The notes under the pieces: model-generated
Database searches by the model: none
What the model was told of the DNA's origin: nothing
What the model saw: only the letters and a program-made list of their open reading frames with translations
Assembly (NCBI GenBank): GCA_030704615.1
Contig: CM060731.1
Span: 5,456,001-5,520,000, forward strand
Direction of reading: 5' to 3'
Source: Takakia lepidozioides
Lineage: Eukaryota; Plantae; Bryophyta
Length of the DNA stretch: 64,000 nt
Program-made: the position numbers and the translations under genes
Shown here: one piece after another, positions 3,581 through 58,419 of the stretch
How the letters are laid out: each line of letters opens with the position of its first letter
Numbering within the stretch: the first letter of the stretch is position 1

Positions 3581-4657
3581 ACTCACAGAGGGAACTCCAA
3601 AAGTCTGTCCAGTTCTTGCTCCCGTGTGGACTATCACAGCAACAGCAAAGGAGCGACTTGATAACGGATTGATTGACACATGTGCAGGTCTCGCGATCCT
3701 CACTTGAAGATCGCACACACTTCAATTCCTCATATATATACTCGTCGGCCCCGACGGACTATTGAAGTAGAATATTCTGTCAGCACGTCACATGCTTCGG
3801 AGTGACGCAAAATTTCTAGGGTTGCACTATAGACTTGTAGATTATCGAAGAGCAGAGCAATCGTTGCACTGGTCGCCCGAAGGTGCTTCTTTGGTTTCGG
3901 ATTGTTTTGAGGGTGACATCATTTTATTATCACAATCACGTGTGTAAGACTTGAGACAATGCCAAGGTGATGTCCGGGAGGGTTGTTCGGCCCGTTGACT
4001 AGAGAGGTCCAGAATCGATAGCAGATCGGATGAGAGAGGTGGAGCAGATTTGAGAGCTTACCAGTATGGCGTTATGGAAGGTTTGCAGCTAAGGGAGCAC
4101 TTTGGAAGGTAAGAGCTGTAAAATGTGATCATCCTTTGCGCCTCGTGATGATGAAGTCATCGGCCGAAGCAGTCGGATTGCCACCTTGAATTCGCTTAGA
4201 ATTGTGATTGAATTGTGCCGGGTTACATGATCTTTCGGCTCTGCATCCATACCTGTTGTCTGAAAGCATCTGCCAGTGTTTGTACATATGAGAGAGACAA
4301 GGGAGGCGGGTTAAGGAGACGTGCTTATCGATCTGCTGTGTTGCTAGCTTTATCTTTTGCCTCTCAATTTCTAGGCTTCTTTTCTTCTAATTGGAGCTTG
4401 AGCGCGGGATGCTGACAAACATTAGATGGTTGGTTTCTATCATAAATTATTGATCCTTGACTGGGACTCCCCTCAGCTCCAACACAAGTAAAAACATTAT
4501 CAACTTGTACATTCCATGGAAACAGGGCAAATTTATTTGAGCTGCAAATTTTCAAACAAATGTGGTGATGCTTGGCGAGCTTTAGGATGCAGCTGCTAAG
4601 ACCTCATTCAGCCCAAACAAAATATATTTGTTGTTTCAGTGTTGCAATTTCTGGTGA

Positions 4658-16058: not shown

Positions 16059-18781
16059 TTTTTCTTTTTCTTTTTTTTTTTAAAAACAGGGGGATATGCC
16101 CTGGTTAACTTTATATAAAATGTTTTGGGGGCTAGCCCTAATACATTATTTAGGATTATTTGGGGAAAAAAATTAAAACCCCTAATTGCCATAAGGCACA
16201 CTCACCGTAATCAGTGGATGGAGAACTTAGCCGGAGAGCGACTCCTTTGAGCAAGTAGCAAGACAACTGTGGCGACCAACTGTCTCAAGCGATCAATCAG
16301 ACCATTAATAGTAGAATTGGGATATAATTAGGCTAATCCGATCAGGAAGTTTCCTAGGGATTAGCGACCAGCCAATACCACCGGCTAATTATTGTTCAAC
16401 GGTAGTTGAGCCTAGAAGTTGTCGCTGTGGATTTTATGTGTTTCCAGTTAACCTCCCGGTCGAATTCCGGGGAAGTTTGCGTTGGATGTCTGCACAAAGT
16501 TTAGCCCAGGCCTTACGGGATTCAATACCCAGATCATAGAAGATGAGTGCCATGAATGAGGATATTGAGGTAGTGTTTCCAGAGAAGGTTATGGCGCATC
16601 TGGCTTCCCATAGGTGCCATAGGACGGATCCTCTAAGAGCTTCGAATACAGGGCATGGGAGAGATTTCTATTTGGATTGAGGGTTGTAATTGAGGAGGAT
16701 GTCAGTAACTGATAGAGGCCTGGGGCTCCAGTGTCTATAAAAATCCTTTACAACTGGCCAGATGGTACGGGGGGCCAGGCATCCCAGAAACGCATGCTCT
16801 ATGGTTTCCAGTATACCCACGGGGCAGCATGCGCAGAGGAGCGAGGAATGGAATTGAAGCCACTCCCCCACTTTCAGTACCCTGTTAGCAATCTGCCAGA
16901 GGAGGGTCGCCACCTTGGCTGGGCGTGTCTTGATCCAAATAGATCCCCAGATAATAGACCATTTCTCATTAAGAAATCCGTGGTGGTGCCACCTTGTGTC
17001 CCACTTAGATTGTAATGGCTTAGCTTTCAATAGGGCTTTGTATCCCTGCTTTGTAGAGTAGGTGAAGAATGGGTGGGGACCACTGGGAAAGCTCCATGGC
17101 CATTCCCCCAAATCCAGGGGAAGCTCAGCCAGAGGTCTGCCTAGGATCCAAGAGAATGTATTAACCTGCAGCCATTCGGCGGTGGTTTCCAGGGGTGGCG
17201 GGATAGGGTTCATGTCCTTGGAAGGAAGACTCCATCCACAGATTCTGACCGGGGTTAGGGGGGTCCAGGGAATGTGAATGATTTGATCTGAGAGGAGCTG
17301 AAGCAGCATTGAGCCCTGATTGATGGAGAAGGGGAAGATGGCATGATGCGAGGCAGTGGATTCTTGTACAAAGAAGATCGAGAGGCTGCCTCAGAAGATA
17401 GCCAAAGCCCAGTGGTTGCGCTGAGGCAACGTCGGTCCCAACTACAGGGTGGTTTGCCATAGGGTAGAGATGGATCTCTTGATTTCATCCAGGCCTTTGA
17501 TAGCTCTCGCTTTCCCAACCATTATGGCGATGGTGTCCAGTGATTTCCAGTCCCCATTTGCCCATAAATGACCGATCTGTGAAATTCCAAGGTGATCCTA
17601 GGCTGACCATCGTTTTGCCTCCTTCTTTTGGATAGCCGTTGGAAAGTTAGAATTGAGAAAGAGGCTTTGGCGAATGGTTTCGTAGAATGATGTAGGGTCT
17701 GCCTTTTTCAGGAATTTCCTTAGCTTGTCCCAGGCTCTCCATATGGTTTGCCAGAGCGGGGACCCTACCACCTTGTGTTCAAACCCTTGTGTCGCCCATC
17801 TAAAGGAGGGGTTCCATCTGGCTTTTTTGAGGGCTGAAGCCTGCATCATGTATGGGGCCACAAGGAACTTCCACCACCCCCCTTCTGGGCCAAGAAAACG
17901 AGGAATCCATTTCCCCAGGAGAGCCATTATCTGGGTTTCAGGATCTAAAACCCCCAATCCACCTAGTTTTTTGGGCATACAGATTTGTTTCCAAGCTACT
18001 TGTGGCCTTTTCCCCTGCCCAGCTTTTTGTGCGCCCCATATGAAGTTCCTTAGAAGGCGGGTGATCTCCCTGATATGCTTGGTGTCCGGTCTCCAGGAAG
18101 ATGCAAAGTACCAGATTCTAGCCTCTAAGATTTGTTTGGCTATAAGAGCTCTTCCTGAGATGGACAGATGTTTAGAACCCCAATATGAGAACCCTAAACC
18201 CTAAACCCTAAACCCTACAACCACCCTGGGTCCAAGGGGGATTACAGGGAGAGCGTTGAGACAGTCTCACGTCTGGCGCTTAAAGATTGGCTAGGATTGG
18301 GGCAAATCTCTGATCGTCCGAAAGGCCAATGCCAAAGGTGTATCCCAGCAGTATTGTAGATTCACCTGGCTGAAGCCATTTGAGGCCATGTTGGGAGCCC
18401 CAGGTTGGTGGTGGGCCCAAGGTGGTAGCCGTGAGGTCACCCACCAAGAGAGCTGAAGTCTTGTTCCAGTTCACCTTGAACCCAGAGGCCGAGCAGAACG
18501 TGTTGAGTGTGTTTGCCGTAGAGTCCAGATTGGCCGTATCTGCCTGGAGCATGAGGAAGGTATCATCCACAAACATAGAATCTATTATGTAGGTTGCCTG
18601 GTGGGTGTAGAAATTAGTCACCAAGAGGCCCTTGATGGCTGGGTTGTTTTGTAGCATATAGCCAAGAGAGTCGGCCACTATCAGGAAGAGGAAGGGGGCC
18701 AAGGGGCATCCCTGCCTTACAGATCTATGGAGCTCAAAGGGTTTGGAGAGTGCCCCGTTTATAATAACTCTGCTTGTGGAT
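16059..18781 (-). mobile_element. L1-clade LINE, decayed ORF2 3' half with poly(A) tail
   Basis: RT motifs SVRQGCPLAPFLF and SMFVDDT (18280-18780). VAWKQICMPKKLGGLG and zf-RVT region (LLWQIANRVL..C..ETIEHAFLGC). T-run at 16059-16081 is the tail. Contains stops and frameshifts; 5' part cut off at 18781. Confidence 0.9.
18190..18275 (+). repeat. Interstitial telomeric repeat (AAACCCT) x ~4 plus ~58 bp of non-L1 sequence, inserted in L1 ORF2
   Basis: 18190-18217 is AACCCT(AAACCCT)3A. The L1 frame reads PILANL on one side and SYWGSKHLS on the other. Confidence 0.9.
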
Positions 18782-19179
18782 GGGGGGTTGCTATTCCATG
18801 AGCTCATGAGCCATGAGCGGGCATGGCTCACCCATGAGCCGCAAAGTAACACACTTCGAATTTTGGCAGATTTTTTTCGGGCCCAAAACTATAAAATAAT
18901 CGAAAGTAGTATAAGAAGAGAAGGTTTTCGAAGATTTCCGCGCTCATGCTGGAAGCACTCCGCTCATAAGTACCAGTGTCCGCTCATGACTTGGAGCCCA
19001 GGCTCATGGACCGCCAGGCCAGGTCATAGAAAAACTGAATTCTGGGCAATAACGGCACCGAAATTATCCCAGAGGAAGAGACGCAAGCGGAATTAGGATC
19101 CGGGTTTGCAGACTCCGAAAACGCAATGGCGACCTATAACCGTGGATAGTACTGTTGCAGAAGTGCAGGATGGTTGGGT

Positions 19180-26167: not shown

Positions 26168-26415
26168 CAAAGTCTCATTTGGATCCTTTTGTTGTACAGT
26201 TCTGAAACACTTAATGAAAATATTGACGATTTCAAAAATCATTGTGTTCAGACTGTATGTCCGATTCCCTACATTTCTTCCGCCAACCACAATGTAATAA
26301 TAAAAGCAGAAGAGACGCAAACTTAAGTAAAGAACCCTACAAGTAATTTTTGCACACCAGCGAACCGCGAACTTGAAGCCATGAAAACCCTACCATTTCT
26401 AACATTCCTATTGGG

Positions 26416-26700
26416 AATTTCGGCGCCGAAATAGCCCAGTGTGCGCCTTCATAATATGGGCCTTATAAAATTCCATGAAGGAATTACTGCACCAAAATAT
26501 CACGATGAAAGCCTTCAGCACAAGGCACTTCAGCACATTCCACTTGGGTATTTCGGCGCCGAAATAGCCCGCTTTGCGCCATAAAATACGGCACTATATC
26601 ACATTTCAAAAGGAAATTTCGGCGCCAAAATACCCCGGTGGATGTCTTCAAAACACCACTTTAGCACACTGCTCTTGGGAATTTCGGCGCCGAAATACCA
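26416..26700. repeat. Cluster of palindromic ATTTCGGCGCCGAAAT motifs
   Basis: Copies at ~26417, 26550, 26616, 26681 and a degenerate one at ~26485. Confidence 0.8.
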
Positions 26701-27169
26701 AGGTCGGTGGTTTTAGGACGGCGGTGGTTTTAGCACAATTTATTCCCGTAATGTCGTGGCACCTTCTCTGTCAAGCCCCTTCTAGCCCTAGTCATTTTCG
26801 ATCGCTTGTGTGGGTAGCCGTTGCTGGCCAATGGGGGCACGTATTGCCGTTGCCCCAGAGAAGATCACCTGAGAAGGTTTTCCGCATTGGGTTTTCAATG
26901 TTTGCATCTCCGTGTTGAAAAACAATAGTGATTACTTGTCCCTCTCCATTCCCGGTGGGCGCACACTTCCTCAATGCCGCCTTGTGTAAGTGCCTTCTGC
27001 ATTCGACGGAGCGGGATTCGAGGATCGCGATTGCGTGAGCCGGTGATGGGAGACATTATGGTGGAGTTGGACTTCAGTGAAGGTACACGCAGGGTGACGA
27101 GTTTCCGAGCACTTCTCCGTCTCACCATGCCACCGACCTCCAGTATCATCATGCTTGCTCGTGCATGGA

Positions 27170-28502
27170 TTACGACTCAATCCATCTGCATCCCGATTGA
27201 CAATACTGACTAGATGCACCACCTAAAAGTCGTATTCTTGAAGCATAAGTGTCCACCGTGCAAGCTTCCCTGTAAGCTTGTCTGACTCCATCAACCACTT
27301 CAATGGTTGGTGATCCGTGACAAGGGTGAAGAGATTGCCATAGAGGTAGCATCTGAAATGTGCCACTGCCCATACCACAGCTAGACACTCCCCTTCATAG
27401 GAACTATACTTCGCCTCGGCATCATTGTTTGAGTGGCTAGCATATGCCACTACGAACTCTCTTCCCTCATCATCCATCTGTGTGAGCACTGCTCCAATCC
27501 CCAGCATACTCCAATCCGTATGTAGCTGGAAAGGCCGCCCCCAAATAGGCCGCCTCAGAATACGTGCAGAAGTCAATCGAGCCTTGAGTTCCTCAAAGGC
27601 TTCCTCCTGCTCCTCCTCCCACTGCCACTCCTGACCTACCTTGGTCAACTTAGTAAGAGCCTTTGCAATGCTGCTAAATCCCTTGACAAACCGTCGATAG
27701 TAGTTTGCCAACCCCGTGAAAGCACGAACTCTACTAACATCTATGGGGCGTGGAATGCGTGCAATGGCCTCCACCTTCGTCTTTTGAATACCCAATCCTC
27801 CAGGGTATATCATGTGGCCCAGATACTCAATCTGGTTGTGGAAGAACTTGCACTTCCCAGGGTGCAATTTCAACCCATGCGCTCTCAAGCGCTCAAATAC
27901 CACCTAAAGGTATCTCTCATGCTCCTCAACCGTAGTACTAAAGACGATGATGTCATCAATGTAACACCGGGAAAAGTCTAGCCCCGCGAGAATCCTATCT
28001 ATAACCCTCTGAAAATCTGTAGGAGCATTCTTCAACCCAAACGGTAGGAAGCGCCATTGGTACAAGCAATCTTTCCCATGTTGGTCAATCCCCCAGAAGG
28101 TCGTCTTTTGCTTGTCAGCCTCTTTGATTGGCAACTAGTGGTAACCGGATCGCAAGTCCAATGTGCTAAACACCTTTGCATGCCCAATGACATCAAAGGT
28201 TTCCTCTGGAGTTGGCATGGCATATCTATCGGACTTAGTCTGACGGTTCACAGGACGATAGTCCCCACACATCCTTCTTTCTGTCCAATTGCCATAGATA
28301 TCCTTCTTAGCTGGCATCACCGTTGCCGAGGCATACTCCCCGCCTGACAACTCCACCAATCCAGCTTCGAACAACTCCATAGTCCGTGACTGGATCGATG
28401 ACCTCTCCATGTCACTATACCGGTAGGCCTTCGAAAGATTGGCGTGTCACTTGCCAAATCAATACGAATCTCCTGACCCTTCAAACTCCCCAAATTCTTC
28501 AA
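27170..28502 (-). pseudogene. Gypsy A reverse transcriptase and RNase H
   Basis: RMCGDYRPVN, TLDLRSGYH*, FLPFGLKNAP, CYIDDIIVFS, LHTDWS, YSSYEGECLAVVWAV, TDHQPL, DADGLSR. Several TAG stops. Confidence 0.95.
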
Positions 28503-29039
28503 ACCAAAGGCAAAGCAATTTCTATAAGCCCTTTGAAATCACTGGATCCTCCGTCTCTCTCTGCTCCGGTGACTGTAGGTCCAACATCTGGTTCCCAATT
28601 GTCCTCAATGACTGCAACCTTGGGTACATCAGGCTTGGAGATAGGAGACGAATCCTTTGGTTCCTAGATAGCAACCTCTTGGGCCTTGTCCGCCCAATCT
28701 GACTGTGGTGTAGCCTCCACTTGCTCTGCCATAACCACCTTGAGAACATTCATCTGGGGAAGAAACATTCTCAACCTCTTCAAAAACATTGGCCACCTTG
28801 GCCTCCAACTGATCCTCAGTGTATGGCTCTCCCCACTCCTCATACTGCTGCTTGAGAGATCCAAGGACTCTCTCTTTCCGCATCTCATCCCACATCTGCC
28901 ATGGGTGTTTGCACCCCATGGTCATGTGCTCGCCCCCACTCACTACCTCAACCGTCCCGGTTGGCAGAGGGGATACAATACCAAATGGGAGTGCAGAAGT
29001 AGCCACCACTGTCTGCAACCTCCGTTGCTCAGCCATGCA

Positions 29040-29990
29040 CAAGCCAATGACCCATGTCAAGCAATTTAGATCCATTGCTTGACCCAACACATGTCGGCGT
29101 GATGCCTCTGACAGAGCTGGCACAGCTGTAGTGCCCGTGGCAAATCCCATTGCCCGTTCTCGCTCATCTGCATTGGGCTCCACCAATTGTTGTAGCACAC
29201 TGTCCCAAATCAACCCAGGACCATTGTCTCAAAAAGCATGAGACGAGGGAAAGCTCATGAGCATAGGCAAGGCCGCACGTGGCTGCCCCACTCGATTTAC
29301 CACTGCTAGAGGTGGACGGTCATTATGTCGCACCCTCTGTGGTTTCCTCCCTTGGTCCAAAATGCCCTCAACTGTGAGATTGGGTGGCCGTTGAATGGAA
29401 TCGTATGCTCTCTTGAGCAGCTCTGGTGGTGTAAGATTGGTCCACCACAATCGAGGTCGATGCGCTCGTGATCCCACCGCTGCTGCATCCAATAGCACCA
29501 CCGATCCAATCCAAGACCGCACCTGATGCATACTGGCCATAACCCTAGCCCAAGAGTCCCCCATAAGAGGAACATTCTCCAAGATATAGGCTAGAGGTTG
29601 CACTTGCCTCGTCTACAAGTCACGCAACACTCTCAACATCTCATAAAACAAATGCGATCGTGCATCATGCAAGCCGTTCCCATGACATGCGGGAGAGTGT
29701 CATTGGCAAGGCCATCCAGCTATCACCAAATCAATGGCACCATGTTGGTCCAATTTATCCACCCCCAACAAGGTAATGTCTGCTGGCAAGGCCTTTTGAT
29801 ACCCTTGAATTGCTGAGAGAGACAACAACTCAGGATACCGGTGTGTGAGCAAAGCGATGTGGCGCATAGAAATACGCCGAGCTATCTCATCATTCTCTAC
29901 ATATAAGTACTTGCGTACTTTAATCCCAGCTTGCAACACTCCTGCAAGCCCAGTGCTCATGCCTCCAAACAGGTCTAGCAAACAAATCCC
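29040..29990 (-). pseudogene. C5 DNA cytosine methyltransferase domain (DNMT3-like) within the gypsy polyprotein
   Basis: Motif I LLDLFGG, II YVEND, III DI, IV DLVIAGWPCQ, VI ILENV, VIII AHRPRLWWTN, IX ERERAMGF, X RRHVLGQAMD. All in one frame with in-frame stops at 29700, 29613 and 29229. Confidence 0.93.
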
Positions 29991-30128
29991 TGAGTCAGGT
30001 GGTTGCCAGGTAATGGGCACTGTATCCAAAGGAGCTAACTGAGGAGGTCCAGGTGATGTCACTGAACTCCCCTCAATTACCAATGGATAGGCCTCCTGCC
30101 ATGCTTGGTGCACATACTCGTCTGCTAC

Positions 30129-31518
30129 TCAATGCAAATTCCTAACTGTACCCCACAGTGGAATATGAACAGACACATGAGGAAGCAAATCAGCCTTGTA
30201 TGCCAATTGTTTGTCCTCATCAGGTGGTGGCCTATCATCTGCATGGCTATTGCCTTCCAAGAGCTCACCACCCCAAGCCACCACCCCTGAGAATGCAGCC
30301 AATGTGGGCATCATGTTCATATGATCCACCGCTACATTCCCAATAAACCGCACTGGGAGCAGTGTACATCGACCATCCCCTGACTGCCATTCCGGCCTGT
30401 AGGATGCCATTTCCTCCCAAAAGTCCAAAGTAAAGCCCATCGGGTATAACACAGCCCTGCCAACAAGCACATCATAAGACATCGCATCCGTAACAATGGC
30501 TTTAGCTCTCATGATAGAGCCATCTGTAGGATGATCTGGCTGCAATCGAATGAAGAGCTCATGGCGTGTAATCCCTCGTGCCTTCTCTAAACCGCCCAAA
30601 GATGTTTGAATTTGGAAAGGACAAGGCTCCAAATCCGCCTCTGTAAGGCCCAAGCCTGCAATTGCTGCTCTCCCCAACATCAATGGCTGTGCTCTTGAGT
30701 CCAACAAGACCTGCAGTGGCCTATACCTCCTCCCGGCTGGGCCACCCAACTGAAACACTCCATCCTGATTGTCCACCAGGACTACCCCAGGAGTCACCAT
30801 ACTACGCTCAATGGTTGGTCTAGCTGGCAACTCCTGCAACCTTGCAGCTGCCGCTTGCCATGGCGCAGCTGTGGCTGTTTTCACCCTTGAATCCAAGGCA
30901 TCCATGCATTGCACCTGATCCGCTATCCCCGCAAATAGTGCCGATGCATCACCACTCTCACAGAGTGCAGCTGCCAGTCTAAACACTGCAGCTGGCCGCA
31001 TCTCCGACATTGCAATTGTCGTGGTAGAAAACAATGGAGCTTGGCAAATTGCCGTAGCCACCCCCAACAATGTACTGGCTGCACCTTGCTTTGCTGCACC
31101 ACCCAGTGGCATTTCCCAAGCCACACAAACTCTCCCCAATGACACTCGTGGCTCTACTTCTGACACACTTGGGCGAGCGGGTGCCATCGATGGCATAGTT
31201 GGCACTGTCTCAGCCAATGTGAAAGATTGTGGAAGCCTTGTCTGCCGACTTGCTTCCCCTCTTTGTGGATCAAAATCCACATCCACTCCTCTTTGGCTCA
31301 GGAGCACGCGTTGCTGCTCGAGTGACAGCAGCTGCAGAGTCCACATGCAATGGTCCTGCAAGTACGGCTCCACACATGAAGCCCATACCAATCTGGTCTT
31401 CCCTAGGCATAGGAGGTGGTGCAGGTGGGGCTTGAACCTCAAGCCTTGGAGCTGGAGCAACATGAGTAGTGGCCATGGTAGCAAGACGTTGCTCTAGCTG
31501 GGCAAGTCTATCCACCAT
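30129..31518 (-). pseudogene. Gypsy A Gag-Pol linker and aspartic protease
   Basis: VLLDSRAQPLMLG (DSGA-like active site) and SYDVLVGRAVL. In frame with the MTase across one TGA at 30129. Confidence 0.8.
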
Positions 31519-31545
31519 GCCTTGGTCATGACCTTGACCCTGACC

Positions 31546-32889
31546 CTATGCTCCTTGGTTTTGGTTACGACCTCCACCCCGACCTCTGCCTCCTCTACCT
31601 CTCTGGACTATATTGCCTTGTCCTCGGCCACCATTGTTCCCTTGGAACTGGCCTGGCCGTAGCTCAGGATGCAAGCCATAACAATGGGCCTCCTCATGCC
31701 CATACTTTCCACAATGCCCACACTGTAGTTGTATAGGCTGTGCCTGTGCCGGCCCTTTGCCTCTCTCCGGGCAATCCTTCTTGACATGGGATCCTCCACA
31801 ATCCCAACAAGTCACACCCGACTGTTGTTGGCCTGAGAATGAAGGAAGAGACCTCTGCATCTGAGATCCTCTCTGTCCTTCCCTCGGCTTCACCTGAGCC
31901 CCCTTGTTGCCTTGAGCATGTTGGGGTAGTGGTTGTTGTTGGCTAGGAGCCCCACTTCGTTGTGTCTCCTTACCAAATCCCACCATGACCACTCGCTCCT
32001 CCACCATATTGAGCTCTATCCGCTCTGCCAGCAAAAACACATTTGCTAAGGTGGGTTGGTCCACTTGTAGGAGAGTTGCATCCCGCACCCTTCTCCTCAA
32101 CTCCTTGTCCAATATCCCATACCAGAATTGGACTGCTTGAGCTTCCGTAACCCCTTGGGTTACATTTATCAGTCGCCTCATGCGTGTGTAAGCCTCCCTC
32201 AAACTCTCAGTAGGCTCGCGCTGGAACTCTTGCAAGCTCCGCAATTTCTCCGTCCTTATCCCCTGGTAGTTTCTCCTCAACTCCTCGAAGAACTCCACAA
32301 CTGGATTAAAGGCAGGCACGAGTGTTGGTGCTGCAGCAGGAGCTTGGGTGGACTTCCTAGCTCCTGTTCCACTTAACGTCCCACTGCTGCTTGCAGTAGC
32401 TGCCGGTGTCACCACTGCCCTTGTGCCTCTAGTGATGGAGACATAGTCAGGTGACCAATACACCCGCCATTCCTCAATCTCCACCTCATGTCCCTGCCTA
32501 AACTCATTGTAGTCATCCATGGGCGGCCCCTCAAGGTGCTGAAACAACCCCTTCCACGCCATAAAAGGCGTAAACAGTTGTGGATTGCGCATCTGCTGCA
32601 AATCACACCAACTATCAAACTTTTGTATGAAATCATCAAGCTCGATGGTGCCCACAGCTCCAGAGTACCGACGTGGCCCCATGGTAGCTCCATACATTTC
32701 CTCCATCGTATCCCACAACAATGGCACGGAAATGGCTTGCACCCATGGCGAGAATCCTCCTAACTCTGAGTCTGAACCTTCCTCAGAAGACACTAAAGGT
32801 GAAGGTGGCCTAAACTGCACACCTCGTCTTGTATACCCACTAGTATCGCTGGTGCTCGTACCGGCACTCTCCTTAGCAGCTGGTGGCAC
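31546..32889 (-). pseudogene. Gypsy A Gag
   Basis: LQEFQREPTESLREAYTRM (major homology region-like). Zinc knuckles CWDCGGSHVKKDC and CGHCGKYGHEEAHC. RG-rich tail; the TAG at 31546 is probably a mutated CAG. Confidence 0.85.
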
Positions 32890-33570
32890 CTCCGTGATGA
32901 AAACTCACAACCACACCTGTTGTAAACCTGTCTCTAATCCCCCTTTCCACAAGGTAACCGGGTAGAGAATCTGTTGCACCTTATGGCTTAGACTACTAGG
33001 TTTGTAACATAAACCTGCACTTGCATCCACCGCAAGCACTCATATGGTCTGCTAGTCATCAACCCAGCCTCACCATAAGAGAAACAATGATGGTCTGACT
33101 GGTCATCACCCCAGCCTCACAACCGACAGCATGCTCTAGGATTGGCCGGTGATCAAATCCGGACCAACCTCCTATGAAAACAAGCGCCCACACAAAATTG
33201 ACATGGCGCACAGTCAAGCATGCAGGTGTGGGGGGGATCCAAACACAAGAAAATCAAGACAGTAACTCCCCCACACACAAAAAAAACACTCCACAGTGTT
33301 GCTCCTGCAAGGACACCCCAGCCCAAACCCGGACTGACTCTTGCCTCCACCTACGGAAAGGTGGCCTACATAGAGGGTGGAAGACTACGAGGAAAAGAGA
33401 CTAAAGCAATTCCTAATCCCAGAATGCTCTCATCCCACTAGTCTCCCCCTATCTCTAAACGCTCTTGCTCATGACCAACAGACATAACTACCTTCCAGGG
33501 TCTCTCAAATAACTCTCCAAGAGCCCTCAAGATGTCTCTCAAACAATCTCACTAACGCCCCCAAAGCCTA

Positions 33571-33760
33571 CCAAATCTTGGCCCTCAAGGACCCCAAAAA
33601 GTCCTTCAGACAAGTTGCCAAAGACTCCTTAAGCTCGCCAAATATTAGCCTCCAAGGACCCCAAAATAGTCCTCCAAACAGCCCTCCAAAGGCTCCAAAT
33701 GTTTGCCAAATATTGGTCTTCAAGGACCCCCAATAGTCCTCCAAATAGTCCTCCAAACAC
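33571..33760. repeat. Degenerate ~68-bp tandem repeat x3 in the gypsy A leader
   Basis: CCAAATATTGG.C.TCAAGGACCCCAAAA.AGTCCTCCAAACA-like units at 33571, 33638, 33706. Confidence 0.7.
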
Positions 33761-36643: not shown

Positions 36644-39600
36644 TCAGCTGGGCTCACTATCTGTATCCAAATAATCTTCCCCTTCACTACCCACATCTGC
36701 AATTTGCCTTGCGGTAATTACCAACCCTGGAATGTCTTCCTCATTAAAGGTAACTGCTCCTTCCAAAGAGACTGGTTCGGCCGTATCTGGTAGATTTTGT
36801 GGTTCCCTCAGACCCTCGTGGTCGGCATTCTCCCCTAGGTCCAGATCATGGACGTCGGCCACGACTCGTTTGGCCCGGGGGTCCTTGTGAAGAACCACCT
36901 TCCATCCCGGCGCATGGGTGTCATCTGAAAAGAAAACTTGCTCAACTTGCGATGGGAAGATGAATGGCTCTTCATCTTGTGGTAGCATTTTTCTGAAATC
37001 AGCAAGGAGGAACCCGTACTCATCCCGTTTCATGGTGGCATTCTCTCCTACCATATTGGCTTTTACCCAAGAACAACGGAATAGAATTGGCTTCACAAGA
37101 CCATAGTCTAGTTTAAGGATCTCTTTGATCACTCCTACATATTGCACATGGCATGAAATTGGATTCCGATCTCGTGCACAGCTCCTACTCTCTTGTTCAA
37201 AAAATGATGCCACTCCGCTGTCATAAGTCACCAGGAGGCTGGTGTTGGCATCGTCCACTCTATAGTGATTGCCATATGCTTTCATTGACCGGTACGAAGT
37301 GGCAATCAGCCCTGGGGGAATGACAGACTCACCATGCCCTCATCTGGTCCTCGTTCTCTGATGCGTACACTGCAATTGCAGATCTGACCCACACTGTAAA
37401 GGGCTGCAGCTCCTCCATTGTTGTGGGGTACTCCACCGGGGATCTGCGCCTACGACCGCCCCTCCGCCATGCTTTTGCAAATGCACTCCGTTCCGTTTTC
37501 AGGCGGACCTTCTCCGCTGCGTACTTTCTGGCAGAAACCAAATAGAAGCTGCAACTCAGTCCCCCTGACCAACACCGTGCTGTACATGCATGCCACATGC
37601 AGAGTGTGTGTCCTTTCAAGCACACTGTAGTGATGCAGCCTACTTCATAATCACTTGCAAGCAACAACCAAGATCTACGAAACACCCTCTGTAGTCGTCT
37701 GAAGCACCCTGTTAGTACACGATCCCACTCCCATAGTGGCCGGAATGACTTGTGACAATATATATGTAATTCCAGCATACAAAGACCATTAAGAATAGCA
37801 CAGGAGGGATGTAAGTTGGCACCCACTGTCTCCATGGTGTCATGGTTGTTGTGTTGTTCAGCACATAATCATGTGCCACATCCCGAAGGCGCGGGCTCAT
37901 GGCACGCTTTGTTCCACCACCTTCTAGGACCTCGCCTACAACTCCTTCTTCCTCGTTCTCGTCCCACACCCGTCGTTGTATTGCATCAAATGAAGACATA
38001 TACTCTGTCATGAAGCCCAGGGCTTCGTCGCGGATGTAGCCCTCCGCCATACTCCCCTCTGGCCGTGCCATGTTGCGTACATACCCCTTCAGATCCTTCA
38101 TGTACCTCTCCATGGGTACATCCACCGGCTGGCTACGGGCCCACACACATGCAACTCCTCTACAAGATGCACTAGCAAGTGCGTCATGACGTCAAAGAAT
38201 GATGGAGGGAATTCTTTCTCCAGCAAACATAAGGTCATAGCCACATCCTCATGCAACGATGTAATGTCCCTCGGATCCCACACCTTCGCACAAATCTTCC
38301 TAAACACTCGACTTACACGCATTATGGCTGTTCGAGGACCTGGCGCCATCGTACCCCGAATGCACACTGGCAAAATCTGTTGCATCATCACGTGTAGATC
38401 ATGTGACTTCATCCCCGACCATTTCTTGTTTATGGCATGCTTTTGGAAAGCACCCGAGAATCCGGTTGGCACTTTCATGGCTCCCAATGTCTTCAAAAAA
38501 TCCTCTTGCTCTGATTTGGTCAGGACGTATGATGCTGCTGGCATGAGCACTTTGCCTGGTCTATTTGGATCAGGCCTTAGCCACAGATGTGACCGTATCC
38601 CTTCAATCTCCATGTCCTTTCGTACGTTTATCGTATCCTTCTCCCCAAAGATAGTCTTCAGAATGTTCTCGCAGAAGTTCTTCTCACAATGCATGGGGTC
38701 CAGGAGGTACCGCTGCAAGAGGTTCTGAAATGCCAAATGTCCTCCCATGACACCAAGTTCTATGGGCAAAAAAAGTAGAATATGTGGCAGAAGTTGTCCA
38801 TGTTACTACATTCTGCTTTCAACAACTCCACGATCCTCTCCACAGTGAGGTGTACGACTTCAACATCTACTGCATAGTAGTTACACTGACTTAGGAGTTG
38901 GTGGAAGGACTCCTGACAGTAAAGGTAATTCCAGGAAGCACAATGTGAAAGAAAGTGAGTGAATGAATGGGGGGGGGGGGATTCATGCACCTTCCAGTAT
39001 GGCAAATCCCAAAGGATTGTCCGGCGCTTCACCCCGTGCTCCATGGCTGGATCCGCACTACTTCCGTCTCTCCCTCCAATCTCCATGAACGCCTCTTTCT
39101 CCTTTGCAAATTGCAATGTCTCCTCCGGTGTCACAACATTTGGTGCCATTCTCTTTTCAACACATCCATTGAAGTGCCTTCTTGCTCGTCGGTAGGGGTG
39201 GTTTCTTGCAAGGTAACGTCGATGCCCCATGTATATTGTCTTCCCTAGTGGCTTTGAGTGCGTGAATCCACATAGGGCCCACAAATGGGGCACCCTTTGT
39301 AGCCCTTCGTCTTGCAACCCGCAACAAGGCCATATGCGGGGAAATCGTGGATTGACCACATGAGTATGGCACGGAGGGTGAAACTCCGTTGCCCTACTGG
39401 TTTCAAAATGTCGTAAGCTTCAACTCCAATCCATAGTTCCTGTAGCTCTTCAATCAATGGTTGCAAATACACATCTATGTTTGCATTTGTCACGGACTCC
39501 TTGCCTGGAATCAAGAGAGACAACATGACAAAGAATTTCTTTGTTGTCAACCATGGTGGCAGGTTGTATGCCACCAACTGCACGGGCCATGTGGACCATG

Positions 39601-40719
39601 TGCAACTCTTTGATCCGTATGGGTTTACTCCATCCGTAGATACAGCCAATCGCACATTGCGTGGGTCCTCGGCGAAATCGGGCCAAGTTGCATCTATATG
39701 CTTCCATGCAAGGGAATCTGGGACATGCCTTACCAAACCATCGTTTGAGGCATTCCTGGAATGCCAAGTCATGAGCTCACTAATGGTCTTGCATTTGTAC
39801 ATTCGTAATAGACGGGGGATAAGGGGAAAGTGCCTCAACACCTTGGCTGGCTGTTGTAACCTGCCCACATCATGGTATCGGGCTGCACCGCATTTGGGGC
39901 ACTCCATAGCATCCTTGTACTCTCTTCTGAAAAGTACATGTCCTTTTGGACATGCATGTATTTTCACGTAGTTGAGGCCGACTTCCCAATCATTTGGTTG
40001 GCCATGTGACAGCTTTTTGGCATTTCATTTGGTTGTGGAAGCAAGTTCAGCCGAAGCAAAGAGAACAACTCGTCCACAAAATGGTCTGAGACACCGTGGG
40101 TTGTGCACAGGTTCATCAACAGCATGGTGGTAGCAAGCTTTGTGGATTTGCATCCCTCGTACAGTGGCACACATGCTTCTTCTAGTGTCATGTGTGCAGA
40201 ATTCAATTCTCCATCTCCACCTCCTTCCACGCCTTCCCCCACGTGAATGCCTTCATTTCCTGCGTCATCACCATCCCCAGTTGTCGCAGCGCCGTCCCCC
40301 TCTTCAGCATCGTCCATGATGTGGAATGCTTCCTGCAACATTCGAGTAATCTCCACCCCTCCGTCCATGCCTGGTTCATGTCCTGCGCCCATGACATAGT
40401 CCTCGTCTGGCCTGTTTGTATGGCTCCCTCGGGGGTGTGCATTGTCCAATTGTGCCCACTCCTCATCGTCTTCGTCTGCAGGTCCATCTCCAATCCACAC
40501 CCGAAATGCTTCATGTCTTTTGTGGTGAAGGAGATGTGTGCGCACACCGTCCTCAGATCTACTTGTAGTGCCCAAACAACGTTCACATGGGCATGGCATC
40601 CTTGAAAGCCCAAGGGCTCGGGCACGTGCCACTTCTCTTTCCCACAACTTGTCATCTCGGGTGTTCTGTCTACAGGGGTGATTAATTGGAAGTCCTCCGC
40701 ATGGGCGAGGGGAACTCAT
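36644..40719 (-). pseudogene. CACTA transposase TnpD (Transposase_21, DUF4218, DUF4216), spliced and frameshifted
   Basis: MPCPCERC; IHACPKG..ECPKCG; PRNVRLAVSTDGVNPY; YNLPPW; IHDFPAYG; LDPMHCEKN; MKSHDLHVMMQ; FPPSFFDVMTHL..GPV..RWMYP; RPEGSMAEGY; EPFIFPSQVEQVFF. Confidence 0.95.
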
Positions 40720-42403
40720 TTTTGTTGGGGAGCCTCTTCAATGCTGTTTGTGCACGCCGTTGCAGGGGGCCGGATTCTCCTTTGCAGAGATTCCTCAATT
40801 TGGCTCTGCCACTCCCATTTCACTACCGTCAATTCCCTCCTCCTGCAATCTCAATTTGAAAGGTTCAGCCGCACATCCTTTGGCAGAGAAGACAGTTGAC
40901 ATTTTATACCAACCGGTAGATTCCACAACATGATGAAAAGTTACACTCACCAGCAAACCATTTAAAAGCCATCACGATGCTTCCCATCATAACTAGAATC
41001 TTTTCAACAAGACACTGAGAGAAATGACCAAAATCGACTCAAACAACGACATCCTGGAAAACCACCTGTCTCTACAGTTCGTGTGTGTGTGAGGAATCGG
41101 AGGACGTACGTGGAATTTCAATTTTCACGATTGAGGACGTTGTGATCTTGGGCATATGGTTGAATGTGTATGAACTGTGTGCATTGAAGTGTGAACAACC
41201 TGACTACAAGGCCAGAACCTGCGCCACTTGTCTTAGGCCATCTCCAAATCACGTTTCGGCGGACAATCCCGTTCCGTTGCCATGAAATTGCACCGTGGCG
41301 GGAAGGGAGTCCATTTGTGTGGCTCTATCACCATGGCGGGAGGGGAGCATGTTAAAAATAGAGCATTGCCCTGCCACTTCACTCATTTGTTGTTTGCACC
41401 TTCTTCCACCATCTTTCTTACTTAATTCTGATTCTTGCAATGCTGCCCTTGAGACGGCAACTGCAAGTGACCGGATCCTTTGATCGTCGCATTCAAAGAC
41501 ACTTACGTGTAGCAGATCGCAGACCCCCAAATGCCTGGAGAGAAAGCCAGACGGCAGTCAATGCATGCACGGTTGTTTTGCACTGGTTGGGATGGAGTGG
41601 GGTGCAGAGGAGGCGTGTTGTGCCCGAGTTTGCATGCCTAGCATCCTGCAGCCAGCGGCTTTTGCACGTTGGGCAGCAGTACCCTCTGCTGTATGATTAC
41701 CATTTGTGGTAAAGACTCACCGGCCTCCCCTGTCCACTTGGGTCTTGGGACAACGACTTATGGAGTATGTAGACAAAGTTGCATGTCGCGCAGGTACATC
41801 AAAATCTCCCATGTAACATAAACCCATTTCTCATTCATGCTGCATGTGATCCACGGGGTAATTTCCATGTTCTCCCAGCTGATGTGGGTTCGCAAATTCT
41901 CGGTGTGTAGGTGTGTGTGCGAGGACCTCAACCTGGCATGGTGCGATGGGTGTCGAATGGACCCCTCTACGATGGGAGAACCACTACTACTGAATCATTT
42001 GGCAGAGCAACCACTACAGTTGAGTTTGTTTTTGCTGAATCATTTGGCAGAGCACTGTGTTCACTTCTCACATCTCATGCGCATTTTCTCCAAGAATGCA
42101 TGTTAAAGCGGAGCCATACACGGGATCATGCAGTGTGTTTCCTTCGCCTCATTTGAACGAAAAAAAATTAAGGATCCATGTCAGTTGTGTGAATCACTAC
42201 ATCTAGTTGTCTGGAGATTGTAAGTGGTTTAGGGTTTTAACATCTCAAGTCGAAAGGCCATAGTGTCGGATGCACGACACGTGTTCATATTTGAGATCAA
42301 CAAACGGCCGGATCTTCACTACAGATTGGGGGGGTGTGTGATCACACTCCCCTCCTTGTCCTTCTTTCCTCCTTGCATGTCCTTGCGTCTTCCCGCGTCT
42401 TTG

Positions 42404-44655: not shown

Positions 44656-47035
44656 TTGGCACCCACCCCCGCCAGATGGTCTCCACAACAGAGTGCACCA
44701 TGGGGAGCCCCCCCTGCTTTGGGGTCGTGGCGCTGGCTTTCTGATGTTGCCACGTCACAATGGGGGCCTCCCACATCTCCATACGGCCCTCCCCCCTCCG
44801 GCACACATCAGTCACCCCCCACAACGTATGACGGCGCTGCTCCAGAGCATGGGGGCAAGAAATGCACATCAGAGCTGAGGAAGGAACGACGCCATGCCAT
44901 GAAACAATGGGAAGGAGATGGAGAGGGAAGGGTGGCTGCAGGGCTAAAGCGCCACAAGGTGGAGGTGCATGGAAATGGAGTCATCAATGCTGGCTGCGAA
45001 GGTAAGGAACACTGGCAGCGTGATTTGCGTGGCCTGGCATTGCGTTACCGTGACTCAAGCGTACAAGACATTGACCAACAGTCCCAGAGTGCCATGTCAA
45101 CAGTAATAGAGGGCATAAATGGAATGTACGAGTACACACCTATCCCTGCCAATTGTGATTTTATAGTGAAGCAATGTGGGAAGATAATGAAAGGAGAAAG
45201 AGCAAAACTGAAAGATAAATGGGCGAAGACTGGTGTGAGGCCAATGAACACTGAACCCGCCTATTGGGATAAGCTTGTTGCCTACTGGGAGTCCCCTCGT
45301 GGACTTGCAAAGGCTGAAGGGATGAAGCAAGCGCATGCTTGTGTCACGAACCCCTCGCGTTGGGGCCGGGCAGGAGTTGCAGGCCAAGCAGCCCGTTTGG
45401 TAATCTCCCTCACCCTCTTCTCATTGCTCTTACTTTGTGGCATGTTCTGATGGAAGAGACACCCACGAGTGGGTTTTATTGCTTGTGCAGAATTAGTTGT
45501 TATGTGATATGCAGGGCAGTGCTTTGTCCATATGCTCCTGGCATTTTGTACTGACAGTGTGTGGATGGGCAAATACAGAAAAGACGCAAAGCGCGGAGCC
45601 CGTCACTGTCCGAGCTCGGGGCGGAGTGCAAGAACGCTGCGACTGGCACCCCATCAGAGTCTGTTTTGAGCCAGGTATGTTTTGAAGTCCGGTTTCCATT
45701 CATGAATCTGTTGTTGTACTAAGATTTGGTGGGTATGTGGGGCCCCCACGCATGGTACAGGAGGGGTGTTATGCCAAACCCAACCATCTCCGAATGCCTG
45801 AAATCCTGCACATTCGGCCTCTTCTTCTGGTTTTTAACAGTACGGGTGGGTGTTTGTATGCGTAGGGAGCGAGGAACTCAATGGCAGCCCGCATCGGGGC
45901 CCTAGAGAGGCTTGCGGCTCTCTCTGCGGAGCGGGAGAGGGGAATGGAAGCACAACTGAAGAAGATAGTGGAACTCATGATGGGGCAAAAAGGGGGTGTG
46001 ACGGGTGGCATTATGGAAGACCCCCCTGCTGCGACCATTGTACCTGACAAGGAGGAAGTAATTGTAGTGGGTAGGGATGTGACAGAGGTCTGGGCTGTTG
46101 TTGATGATATTCACAGTGGGGGGCAGGGTCCACTCGTTGAAGAGGGAGAGGTCCAGCAAGTTGGTGGGGATGACATGGAGGATGGGGGGGTCATTGCTCA
46201 TGATGGGGGAAAAGGGGAAGCTGTAGGGGGAGAGGGTGGTAGTTTGCTTGGTCCAGGCTGCAGGGGGACCAAAACTTTGCCCTCCGGGGTGACTGTTGTC
46301 TCCCAACCCACTGAGGTGAGACCCCGTGACACCCCTTCAAAAGCTCCTTTCATAGAAAAGTCGAAACTAATTGTTCTAGACCTGAACGGGATCCTGTGCC
46401 ACTCTATTCCTAACTTTCAGCCCAACCCGAGGTGTCATTGGCCATGGGTGTTGACCACCAACAAGTATGTTTTCCCAAGGCCCCAGGTCTGCGAGTTTTT
46501 AAACCTTCTCTTCCGGTATTTCTACGTTGGGATATGGTCCTGTGCTTCCAAGGGGAATGTTGCAGACATCTTCAAAGTGGTGATGCAGGGGGTCGAGAGT
46601 TTTCCCCTCTTTGTGTGGTCACAAGAGGAGTGTGACCCCTTGACAGAGCCACACCCCACAAAAGGGCCTGCCGTACAGAACTTACAGAAGAGACTGTCGA
46701 GGTTGTGGTCGGAATTTTTTGGATTTAACGAATCCAACACCCTCCTAGTGGATGATTCACCACACAAGGGGAGGGGGAACTCCCCTTTGAACATGGTCCA
46801 TCCATTGTCGTTTGATGTCACTGGCAATGTCAGTGAGGGGCCCAATTCAGACTATCTTTTAGAAACAGTCTGGCCCTACTGCCAAGATTTGTTTTGCTCC
46901 AAGGATGTGCGTGTCTTCACAAGCACGCGGAAGCTGACCCCGACTGGCAGCTTGAATGTGGGAGAGGATGGGGTCATTGGGGGAAGTACTTTTGCGCCCA
47001 TGCAAGTGAAACCAACCTTACTGTTTGCAACATGA
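44656..47035 (+). CDS. CACTA TnpA-like (Ptta/En/Spm, Transposase_24-like) protein fused to an FCP1/SCP (NIF) HAD phosphatase domain. Exons ..-45399, 45558-45674, 45866-47035
   Basis: ERAKLK..RPMNTEPAYWDKLVAYWES..SRWGRAG, then two phase-0 GT-AG introns, then KLIVLDLNGIL..RPQVCEFL..VGIWSCA..LFVWSQEEC..NTLLVDDSPHK. 5' start not defined. Confidence 0.75.
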
Positions 47036-47437: not shown

Positions 47438-48437
47438 CATGCTCCACATAAGCAGCACTTGCTTGATCAACCATCCACCACAAAACTTAGGCAAAAAAAG
47501 GAATGAATACATGAGCTTCACCTTCCCCTTCCTTGTCTTGTCACATGCTAATGTATGGTTGAAGTTGCTATGCATGCCGTGAGCCACAATCTCCTTTCTT
47601 CATGAAGACCACCTCCAATGATCTCCCACATGTGCTCCAAGCTCTTCAATACTCTAGGCTTGGTTTCACATCATCATGGATAGAATTCTCACCCACATGC
47701 TTCCCTTTGGAGTCATCTTGAGCTTCTTGATGCTCTCCAAGTGGTTGCTTTTGTTGTCTTCAAGCCCTAGCCTATGTAGCTCCCTGGCTTTTCTTCCACA
47801 ACATGCACCACCTCATACACAAGGAATGAACTTGCTCACTTCACCTTCTAGCTCTCCTCAAGCTTGAATTGGAAGCCACACTTGGAAAGCATGCTCCACA
47901 CATGCGCCACTTGCTTGGTCAATCACTTGCTTCACCAAGAGCAATCCAAGAACTCATAGAATTAGCAAAAGCACTCCCTTCTAGCGCCGCCTTCACTTGC
48001 TTGTTTGTCAACCAAATGAAACCCCACTTGGCTTCATTTCACCATGGATAGAACAACCACTTCTTAGCTTCTCTTGAGCTACTCAATGCTCCTCAAGCTA
48101 CCCTTGTTGTACTCCTTCTATGGTGTTTCCAACCCAAGCATGTGCCGCTCTTTGGCTTCTATTTCACACCATGAATAACTAGAGCTTGCTCTTGAGACCC
48201 TAGTGTCTATCTTCTCCACACACAAGACGCTTCTCTTGTGATGCAAGAGCTCTTTTCAAAAGTTCTCCACCTCTATAGAGCAAAGTAATGCTTCTCAAAC
48301 CCTAACATCCATGTTCTCCACGCCACAAGGATTTTCCTTTGCAACACCTGCAACACCTTGCAACACAAGAGCTCTCTACTAAGCTCTCTCCAACACACAA
48401 GTGCTAAACTAACCCTTACACTCTGCACTCACAAGCA
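47438..48437 (-). mobile_element. Distal 5' leader/LTR part of gypsy A, abutting the gypsy B integrase
   Basis: Joins 34330 across the CAT TSD; same CpG-poor composition. Ends where the gypsy B integrase frame breaks (TARFL). Confidence 0.55.
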
Positions 48438-50721
48438 TAAGGAACCTTGCTGTGGACTTGGCTGTGTTGTCCCTCAGAGCTTTAGCTTCCACCCACTTCG
48501 TAGTATAATCAGTGGCTGTAATTATATACTTGTTCTGTGTATTCTTGGCCGGTGGGTTAATTGGTCCAACAAAGTCTAGTCCCCATTTCTGAAATGGTTC
48601 AGTAGGCATCGTAGGATGCAAAGCCATCTTCCCAAATCTCTGCAAAGGTCCTAGCCTCTGACATTCCTCACAACTCTGACAATACTTGTGTACATCTTTG
48701 AACAAAGTAGGCCACCAGTAACCTGCAAGTAGTATCTTCCTACTGGTAGTCTCTTCTCCAAAATGACCTCCAGCCACTCCTTTATGAACTTCCTCCAAGA
48801 CTTTATTTACTTCATGGTGGTACAAACATCGTTTAAGTACTCCATCAGGTCCTAGCTTATACATTCTGCCCCCTACCATAATATAAGGTAAAGCCTTGAT
48901 AGCGATTCTCTTCCTCTGCTCCTTACCATAACTAGGTGGGCACTGACCATGAGTAAGGTAGTATCTGATTGGCCACTGCCAATCTAACCATTCATCTGCA
49001 CTTCCTTGCACCTCCATTGCAAGTAAACTCGCATCAGGTAATGGGTTGTCTACTCCTGTGGCGGGCTCTCCTGTTGTTAGGCGTGACAAATGATCTGCCA
49101 CAAGATGCAAACGACCAGGCTTGTAAACAACTTCGAACTCAAACTCGTGCAAGATTATTAACCACCTTGCTATCCTTCCACTTATCAAAGGTTTGTTCAC
49201 CAGATATATCAGAGCCTGGTGATCCACATAAGACATAAACTTTCTTCCCAATAGGTAATGCCTGAATTTCTTGACTGCATAAATCATTGCCAGTGCTTTC
49301 TCTTTCAGTTGTGCTATAGTTCCTTTCAGCACTGTTCATCAACCTGCTAGCATAGTACATAGGTGAATCTATATTTCCTGTAACATTTTGGGCTAACACC
49401 GCTCCCAACGCTTCTCCTGAGGCATCACAGTGAACATGAAATACTACATGTCAGTGAGGATTATCAGGTGTAGTTGTTACTGACAATGTAAGTTCCTCAA
49501 AAGCCTCTTGACATTTAGCTATCCATGCAAACACTGCATCTTTCTTTAGAAGCTTGCTCAATGGTGCTGCTATCTGTGCATACCTTTTAACAAATCTTCT
49601 GTAATAACAGGTTTGTCCAAAGAATCTCTTTAGACTCTTAACATTTACTGGTGGTGGAGAGGCTTTAATGGCTTTGTCTTCCTGGGATCCACAAGAAGTC
49701 CCCTCTTACACACTATGTGTCCCAAAAGCACCCCTGAGTTCACACAGAAAGTACATTTCTCTGGATTCAGGCCCCGACCTCTCATCCTACATTTGGCCAA
49801 ACATAACTCCAATTTATGCAAGTGCTCATTCTTAGAGCTGTACACACTGAAATCATCCAAGAACACCTGCATAAAATCATCCAGATACTCATGAAAAAAT
49901 TCACTTATCACTCTCTGAAAGGTTGCTGGTGCATTACAAAGTCCAAAAGGCATGACTTTGTGTGCATAAGCACCCCAATCTGTGATGAAAGTTGTCTTTC
50001 CCTGGTCTTCTTCTGCCACTTGCACTTGATTATAACCACTGAAGCCATCCATGAATGAGTACATCTCATGGCCTGCCACAGTGTCCAATACCGCTTCTGT
50101 GAATGGCAAAGGGAAATGATCTTTCTTCGTGCAAGCATTCAACTTCTTATAGTTCACACAAACTCTCAGTTTACCATTCTTCTTGGGAACTATCACAATG
50201 GGTGACAACCAAGTTGTATACTCTATCGGGTATATAAACTTAGCCTCAGCCAACTTCTTGATCTCTTCTCCAACCTTCTATGCATAGTTGGGATTCATTC
50301 TGTACCTTGCATGTTTGATTGGTACGGACCCTAGTTCCAGTTCAATCTTATGTTGACAGATCTCAAGTGGTATCCCTTTTAGATCCTCGTAGCTCCAAGC
50401 AAATACATCTCTGTATTTGATGAACAAACTCTTAGCTTCCTCAAAGAATTCTGGCTCCAAATCAGCCCCTACCTTCACCATCCTCGGTTCCTCTTCAATT
50501 CCCACATTCACTTCTCTCACCTGCTCATCAGCTGTGATTGTCCAACCAGTCACCACTTCATCCTGTAAACTCACAGTGGCTGGTTCCTCTAGGATTTCCA
50601 TTTCTCCTTCTCTTTCTTCATAGAAATGTGGTGGGTAACTGCTTGTTTCACCTTCAATTGGTGTTGCTGTCACCACACCACAACAGATACCTTTTAAACA
50701 ACTTAGGCCTTCCAGCTGCAT
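48438..50721 (-). pseudogene. Gypsy B pol: RT, RNase H, integrase N-terminus and start of core
   Basis: [91 protein letters not shown]. Stops and frameshifts. Confidence 0.95.
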
Positions 50722-50739
50722 CTCTGCAACCTGCTCCTA

Positions 50740-58330: not shown

Positions 58331-58419
58331 TTCTCCAACTCCCCCCTGAGGTGACGCCACTGGTGGCCATTGAACCACTACTACGTTTAGGGGGTTTAGT
58401 GACGCCTATCCCCCCGTGG

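Follow-up and report, generated by a model that had tools for sequence, protein, structure and literature searches.

We analyzed a 64,000-nucleotide stretch of the genome of the bryophyte Takakia lepidozioides (the window; NCBI GenBank assembly GCA_030704615.1, contig CM060731.1, positions 5,456,001 to 5,520,000 of the forward strand) that carries on its minus strand a dead, 3′-truncated copy of a Ty3/Gypsy-type retrotransposon with a DNMT3-like DNA methyltransferase (DNMT) domain between the protease (PR) and the reverse transcriptase (RT) (Table 1). The copy belongs to a bryophyte family in which a conserved, probably leaky stop codon separates the methyltransferase from the reverse transcriptase. 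A sequence-only reading of the window had described C5-cytosine methyltransferase motifs I, IV (with an intact catalytic Cys), VI, VIII, IX and X in one minus-strand frame behind the protease region, and translation confirmed each of them, with LDLFGG of motif I at 29978–29961, PC of motif IV with its Cys at 29708–29706, ENV of motif VI at 29579–29571 and RPR of motif VIII at 29459–29451, followed by motifs IX and X. The Pfam profile proposed there as a check, PF00145, matched the domain above cut-off (E 2.2e-10), and RVT_1 (E 5.8e-30) and RT_RNaseH (E 2.1e-36) matched downstream of it.

Table 1. Parts of the DNMT-bearing retrotransposon copy in the window
Feature	Position	Strand	Remarks
Putative 5′ repeat (A) and leader	32905..33480	-	inferred; approximate boundary
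Gag part of open reading frame 1 (ORF1)	31293..32904	-	two zinc knuckles 31809–31681; one stop 31548–31546
Aspartic protease domain	30342..30842	-	tblastn 58% to Marchantia protease region; alignment
DNMT3-like C5-cytosine methyltransferase	29028..29990	-	motifs I–X canonically ordered; catalytic Cys present; three premature stops
ORF1 C-terminal tail	28667..29027	-	copy-specific indel near 28750
ORF1 stop TAG (28666–28664) and 3′ hexamer	28658..28666	-	putative type I readthrough signal; differs from UAG-CAR-YYA at one base here
ORF2 remnant: linker, reverse transcriptase, RNase H	27110..28657	-	three stops; indels near 28562 and 28425; ends before integrase

The window Gag is 59% identical to Marchantia Gag and matches Retrotrans_gag below cut-off (E 2.5e-4). 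Pfam returned no protease match on the window copy, in which the catalytic protease motif is altered to D-S-R (30701–30693); the motif reads D-S-G or D-T-G in nine aligned relatives, the stretch is absent from two gene models, and more distant relatives match Asp_protease_2 below cut-off. Read depth in public sequencing runs of the host is ~85-fold lower below 27108, and the window copy ends near 27110. Integrase, a PHD finger and 3′ repeats were looked for in the window and none was found; the Gag-PR-RT-RNase H-integrase order is present there as far as RNase H, with integrase and PHD seen in relatives. Palindromic spaced repeats at 26386–26709, which resemble the subterminal repeats of DNA transposons, adjoin the truncation point. 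At the 5′ end, depth is ~20-fold higher in 33204–33457 than in 33458–33711; no second copy of the putative A repeat and leader was found within the window, and blastn of this segment against the A repeats of relatives gave no match.

The sequence-only reading had drawn a single frame from 31484 to ~28800, from the protease through the methyltransferase. The protease–DNMT frame stands, but homology to relatives begins only near 31290, and a copy-specific indel near 31292 puts Gag into a different frame. Exactly four stops interrupt the protease–DNMT frame, at the places named in that reading (30131–30129, 29702–29700, 29615–29613 and 29231–29229), the first in the PR–DNMT linker and the other three inside the DNMT. 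Indels near 31292, 28750, 28562 and 28425 are not common to other copies in the host runs. Three of the four stops coincide with columns that hold Arg/Gln in relatives, the expected outcome of C>T decay, and the stop in motif IV with a Gly column; compared with other copies, the window copy shows a net loss of C/G (225 versus 102 transitions among 464 changed places, run X1).

A DNMT3-like domain under purifying selection

The Protein Data Bank sequences closest to the window domain are those of DNMT3A, followed by DNMT3B/C; DRM2 and bacterial enzymes are far more distant. The modeled fold is likewise DNMT3-like: a structure model built with X at the stop positions (predicted local distance difference test score 91.7) has DNMT3A as its top Foldseek match (E 3.7e-20, template modeling score 0.72/0.82). 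A separate alignment to DNMT3A, aimed at target specificity, did not reach the recognition loop. The catalytic Cys is retained in 45 of 47 copies and the Glu of ENV in 46 of 47. The ratio of nonsynonymous to synonymous substitution rates (dN/dS), which the sequence-only reading had proposed to compute across copies, is 0.11–0.41 between lineages (where computable, with dS near saturation) and 0.45–0.93 within lineages. Like the DNMT of Gypsy-DNMT3 elements, the domain is an intronless DNMT3-type unit with canonical motif order and retained catalytic residues, and these comparisons indicate that it is under purifying selection and is a genuine part of the element family.

Read coverage and protein searches indicate that this Gypsy-DNMT3 family is abundant in the host and has relatives in mosses and liverworts. 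In public DNA runs of the host, coverage spans the full element and is very deep, and in run X1 the protease and the DNMT are covered alike (summed depth of about 95,000–186,000, which differs from copy number, against 60–90 per contig); joints that skip the DNMT, among those listed, reach single-contig depth only. The sequencing runs listed as containing the element included no RNA run, which has no bearing on expression. A search with the DNMT region returned 50 proteins comparable in length and 19 that are longer; identity is 62–68% for the ten closest, and named relatives are in Marchantia polymorpha, Calypogeia fissa and Sphagnum. Among the named DNMT relatives returned, none was from Klebsormidium, and no relative of the element was found in the viral contigs searched. 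One origin for such a domain would be a single, chance capture of a host DNMT3; another would be a nested insertion, which the sequence-only reading had argued against in calling the methyltransferase an integral part of the polyprotein. Its position is the same in mosses and liverworts, selection on it is purifying and it is as deeply covered as the protease, and on these grounds we excluded both forms of late acquisition as having a negligible chance of being correct.

A profile search with the DNMT collected 595 clusters at E ≤ 1e-30. In the 146 of these that were newly listed, the location of the DNMT varies, the commonest being between RNase H and integrase, and in many retroelements (P0040, P0043, P0056, P0057, P0066 and others) it lies there or nearer the C terminus. 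Position thus varies among related retroelements, and the domain has therefore moved within the polyprotein.

A conserved stop codon between DNMT and reverse transcriptase

We examined the DNMT–RT junction in 80 metagenome loci, 68 of which cover it (L033, L034, L040, L044, L046, L049, L050, L051, L052, L054, L059 and L068 do not and were left out). A stop codon lies at the junction in 66 of the 68, RT keeps the frame of the DNMT in 43 of the 56 loci that could be scored, and decay stops inside the DNMT are common to at most 12 of 47 loci. In the main family, 56 of 58 loci have the stop at a single site (41 TAG, 15 TAA), CAA-CCC follows it in 53 of the 58, and the five other lineages have a junction stop in all ten of their loci. 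Locus L026 keeps a single frame over 6.5 kb that only two stops interrupt, at the junction and in the PR–DNMT linker, and its frame downstream of the junction encodes RT, RNase H and integrase. Five Marchantia gene models of 1278–1281 amino acids terminate 77 residues past the DNMT, and metagenome proteins of 1319–1451 amino acids likewise terminate shortly past it. In this family the DNMT is the C terminus of ORF1 (Gag-PR-DNMT), and RT-RNaseH-integrase-PHD lies behind a conserved in-frame stop.

The sequence-only reading had instead followed a linker from the DNMT into RT as one polyprotein; in the family, ORF1 ends at the conserved TAG, which an indel near 28750 has shifted into another frame in the window copy. 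A single PR-DNMT-RT polyprotein in which all stops represent decay is the layout of a sister group (P0055, P0058–P0064) and is stated for Klebsormidium in the accessible text of PMC5890265, but the stop recurs at one site in the 66 metagenome loci and in other copies of the host genome, and long Gag-PR-DNMT proteins end there. For this clade we treat the single polyprotein as refuted, with a very low residual probability.

The bases that follow the stop resemble a viral signal. Tobamoviruses have UAG-CAR-YYA as their type I readthrough consensus, and CARYYA is effective after UAA too, according to the part of PMC3542737 available to us. The junction reads TAG-CAA-CCA in L026 and L056, TAG-CAG-TTA in L060 and TAA-CAA-TCA in L062, L063 and L077 (L065 is the same insertion as L063), with one-base variants of CAR-YYA in L061 and L075/L080. 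In the window the TAG is followed by GAA-CCA, a single mismatch, and at the mismatched position (28663) other host copies carry the motif base in 89,902 of 90,117 depth in run X1 and in nearly all depth across four runs from four studies. The other eight positions of the host 9-mer show no difference among those listed in the four runs, and nearby positions vary. The UAG-CAR-YYA-type context is exact in five of seven lineages (the host family, L026, L056, L060 and L062/L077) and has one mismatch to CAR-YYA in two (L061 and the main family). Across the seven lineages, 5–15 of 30 flanking bases agree (about 33%) versus 5–9 of 9 within the 9-mer; simple base counting gives a chance of 1 in 512 for the hexamer after a given stop, and the seven lineages share ancestry. 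The family carries a stop and CAR-YYA in frame with a downstream ORF, as in a type I signal; the window copy has one mismatch to it. Stop and hexamer are the same as in the tobamovirus signal (PMC3542737, accessible part), and a conserved RNA structure 3′ of the stop was not found (z −0.05 to −2.2), lack of strong 3′ structure being as expected for type I readthrough.

Phylogenetic analysis groups the elements that share this stop. In the DNMT tree, stop-bearing elements group with proteins that terminate past the DNMT in a single clade (35 tips, support 0.977), itself nested in a 62-tip clade (0.995) that also has uninterrupted PR-DNMT-RT-integrase polyproteins, and in the RT tree the stop-bearing elements form one clade of five tips (support 1.0). 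Trees were built with FastTree only, with 38 near-duplicate or spliced proteins left out of the DNMT tree and no host DNMT3 outgroup; because of this lack of an outgroup and the poor separation of deep RT branches, we claim no donor or order of events.

Split terminal repeats

Ordinary paired long terminal repeats (LTRs), expected by the sequence-only reading, do not describe the relatives, which lack two identical LTRs, one per end, and have split A-B-A-B repeats. Long loci open with A (293–344 nt) on the 5′ side and close with B-A-B on the 3′ side; the complete A-internal-B-A-B arrangement is present in L055, L058, L063, L065, L071 and L078, and the B-A-B end in L009, L062, L075 and L080. 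The outer ends read TG...CA and the inner B–A junction has the form CA-NN-TG, with a tract rich in purines ahead of B. Target duplications of 4 bp are exact at four of the five distinct insertions with both ends, and three of four bases match at the fifth. Integrase may thus act on the CA-NN-TG B–A junction of circular or end-joined cDNA, which would yield the A-internal-B-A-B form. Seven loci (L007, L010, L027, L031, L041, L043 and L064) end at the first B repeat, and L007 retains a 4-bp duplication; copies of this kind are consistent with B–B recombination to A-internal-B.

We compared this architecture with other known elements. An assignment to DIRS/PAT was rejected, as the relatives encode an rve integrase with an H2C2 zinc finger and not a tyrosine recombinase, and show target duplications. 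Troyka elements were rejected as well, having CG...CG ends, 3-bp duplications and animal hosts in the available part of PMC12440569, as opposed to TG...CA, 4 bp and plants here. The portions of the REXdb Phygy/Selgy descriptions at hand mention neither a PHD nor a methyltransferase.

Relation to known elements

The bryophyte family is like KnitGypsy-Dnmt3 of Klebsormidium nitens, which combines Gypsy domains with an intronless, unrearranged DNMT3, purifying selection and DIRS-like A-coding-B-A-B repeats (PMC5890265, text accessible in part), and it shares the Gypsy domain set, the intronless DNMT3, purifying selection and the repeat order. Compared by description, KnitGypsy-Dnmt3 comes from one alga and has its DNMT in the RT/RNase H ORF, whereas the bryophyte DNMT ends Gag-PR with a stop before RT; here DNMT and RT-RNase H share a frame, with the conserved stop between them. 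SymbioDIRS-Dnmt3 and EpiLTRs are also retrotransposon-borne cytosine methyltransferases but differ in being tyrosine-recombinase elements, or in having DNMT4-related domains at the pol 3′ end, and in belonging to other host lineages (PMC5890265; bioRxiv 10.64898/2026.05.21.726589; accessible parts of both).

Stops between polyprotein parts have precedents, and type I signals are known from plant RNA viruses; in the present family such a signal would determine how much Gag-PR-DNMT is made relative to RT-integrase. Avian retroviruses have a Gag-protease frame. PMC6317226 (part seen) mentions plant groups whose first ORF is GAG-PROT. An in-frame stop keeps downstream enzymes scarce in murine leukemia virus (MuLV; about 5%), Tj1, Tca2 and SIRE1, as stated in the accessible sections of PMC2194720 and PMC4600332; there the stop follows gag in MuLV, Tj1 and Tca2 and pol in SIRE1, whereas here it follows protease plus an enzyme.

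We found no published report of DNMT-carrying Gypsy elements in land plants, nor of a conserved DNMT–RT stop, in a literature search beyond whose reach subscription papers, Repbase entries, figures and supplements may hold one. This agrees with the sequence-only reading, which did not regard land-plant occurrence as a recognized feature, and the available passages of later papers call Gypsy-DNMT3 elements streptophyte elements without naming land plants. The land-plant context that it had drawn from flanking genes was also borne out, by one DUF7642 exon closest to bryophytes, which makes a moss or liverwort the most probable host. Judged from sequence, the extension of the host range to bryophytes would be moderate news, and the conserved leaky-type stop appears to be the new, testable part.

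Predicted readthrough and cDNA methylation

We favor, with moderate confidence, a model in which readthrough of the conserved stop makes RT-RNaseH-integrase-PHD, and the DNMT is made at capsid-like abundance and probably methylates new cDNA. Most ribosomes would halt after the DNMT, so that Gag-PR-DNMT is abundant, and a small share would read through the stop into RT-RNaseH-integrase-PHD, as in MuLV and Tj1 (PMC2194720 and PMC4600332, accessible sections); a high DNMT:RT ratio would follow from this readthrough. The protease would free the DNMT inside the particle, where many copies could methylate cDNA before integration, and a new copy might thereby arrive already methylated, dampened or disguised. 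The idea of cDNA self-methylation is already present in de Mendoza 2018 (PMC5890265, accessible part).

Of the steps in this model, readthrough by ribosomes is one that we judge likely. Several points weigh against it: the metagenome loci are partly redundant (repeats of one insertion), were chosen by DNMT motifs and come from few assemblies; two of the 58 main-family loci lack the junction stop; the Marchantia stop is located from gene models, not from genomic DNA context; the main-family hexamer is CAA-CCC, which deviates from consensus by one base, and an ATG follows the stop at a distance of two codons, which would allow reinitiation; several Marchantia and Sphagnum gene models bridge the stop and fuse DNMT to RT, apparently via predicted introns; and reporters showed no readthrough directed by a gag-pol stop of similar appearance in Tca2 (PMC2194720, part available). 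The ATG, the bridging gene models and the Tca2 precedent favor an alternative in which the element and stop are the same and RT-integrase comes from spliced or internally initiated RNA or from reinitiation. Yet L026 and L007 have GTG after the stop and the window has no Met for tens of codons, which counts against this alternative, and the register kept in 43 of 56 loci and CAR-YYA kept despite unrelated flanks count against splicing or an internal promoter because neither would require them. These routes around the stop are, in our estimate, unlikely.

For the second step, predicted catalytic activity of the DNMT on cDNA in the particle, we regard the case as evenly balanced. The DNMT of the Klebsormidium element gave no methylation in yeast, a result that its authors call inconclusive (PMC5890265, accessible text), and this too weighs against the model, as does base composition: the observed-to-expected CpG ratio is 0.44 in the DNMT element of the window versus 0.20 in a DNMT-less Ty3/Gypsy element of the same window that we used as control (Gag, protease, RT, RNase H and integrase; 48409–53556, minus strand). 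We rejected CpG depletion as a sign of self-methylation on this basis, and because the DNMT-less element is even more CpG-depleted, host methylation explains the CpG decay of the window copy. The C>T origin of stops suggested by the sequence-only reading accordingly fits three of them but gives no pointer to the element's own enzyme.

The DNMT could also be made at Gag level by readthrough and have another target, such as chromosomal DNA of its own or competing elements, or RNA, or could play a DNA-binding protective role. The silence of the Klebsormidium domain in yeast is compatible with this, the PHD finger of the integrase already gives a link to chromatin, and alternatives of this kind are given in de Mendoza 2018 (PMC5890265, accessible part). 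Set against them are the conservation of all catalytic motifs, purifying selection, the DNMT3A-like modeled fold, the activity of related SymbioDIRS-Dnmt3 domains, which methylate CG de novo (PMC5890265, part seen), and the fusion to Gag, which would place the DNMT where cDNA is made. We rate a target other than cDNA as doubtful, and methylation of new cDNA in the particle remains the target that we prefer.

More speculatively, an old moss and liverwort lineage, including Marchantia with several unbroken Gag-PR-DNMT frames, might use a plant-virus readthrough signal to load a DNMT3 at capsid stoichiometry, methylate its cDNA and integrate via an internal end-to-end junction, and may be an unrecognized source of de novo cytosine methylation; we put this full account forward tentatively. 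The benefit of a methyltransferase to a retrotransposon, if any, has been an open question since 2018, with hosts that are hard to work with and a Klebsormidium domain that is silent in yeast, and it becomes testable because the family has relatives in Marchantia, a transformable land plant with catalogued methyltransferase genes (five, in the accessible text of PMC5784723). The leaky-type stop predicts that enzyme production goes with that of the capsid and is well above that of RT and integrase, which would suit the methylation of a 9-kb cDNA to saturation. DNMT3-like genes annotated as hypothetical proteins thus go uncounted in bryophyte gene sets.

Other features of the window

The Ty3/Gypsy control element has a double TAG after its Gag-protease frame (50742–50737), with no CAR-YYA context. 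Two host-type features lie on the plus strand: a DUF7642 gene with introns (4600–9000), whose exon at 5803–5997 (65 amino acids) is 86% identical to Sphagnum and 75–78% to Marchantia, Riccia and Calypogeia, five of ten matches being named and all of these bryophytes, and a NIF phosphatase-like ORF (45866–47035). The minus strand carries a decayed CACTA/Tnp2 transposase (36644–40737; Transposase_21, DUF4218, DUF4216) and a LINE remnant (16668–18888; RVT_1, zf-RVT). Between 20000 and 26750 lie two diverging multi-exon transposon-like genes with no Pfam match, one with a SWIM-like Cys motif recognized by eye. Decayed frames at 57426–58354 on the plus strand, possibly continuing at 61205–62761, match a chromodomain (PF00385, E 2.7e-6) and then, weakly, PCIF1_WW below cut-off (E 0.008), a family of the N6-adenine methyltransferase fold; the region may be a retroelement with a chromodomain and an adenine methyltransferase, interrupted by a transposase-like stretch near 58.4–60 kb.

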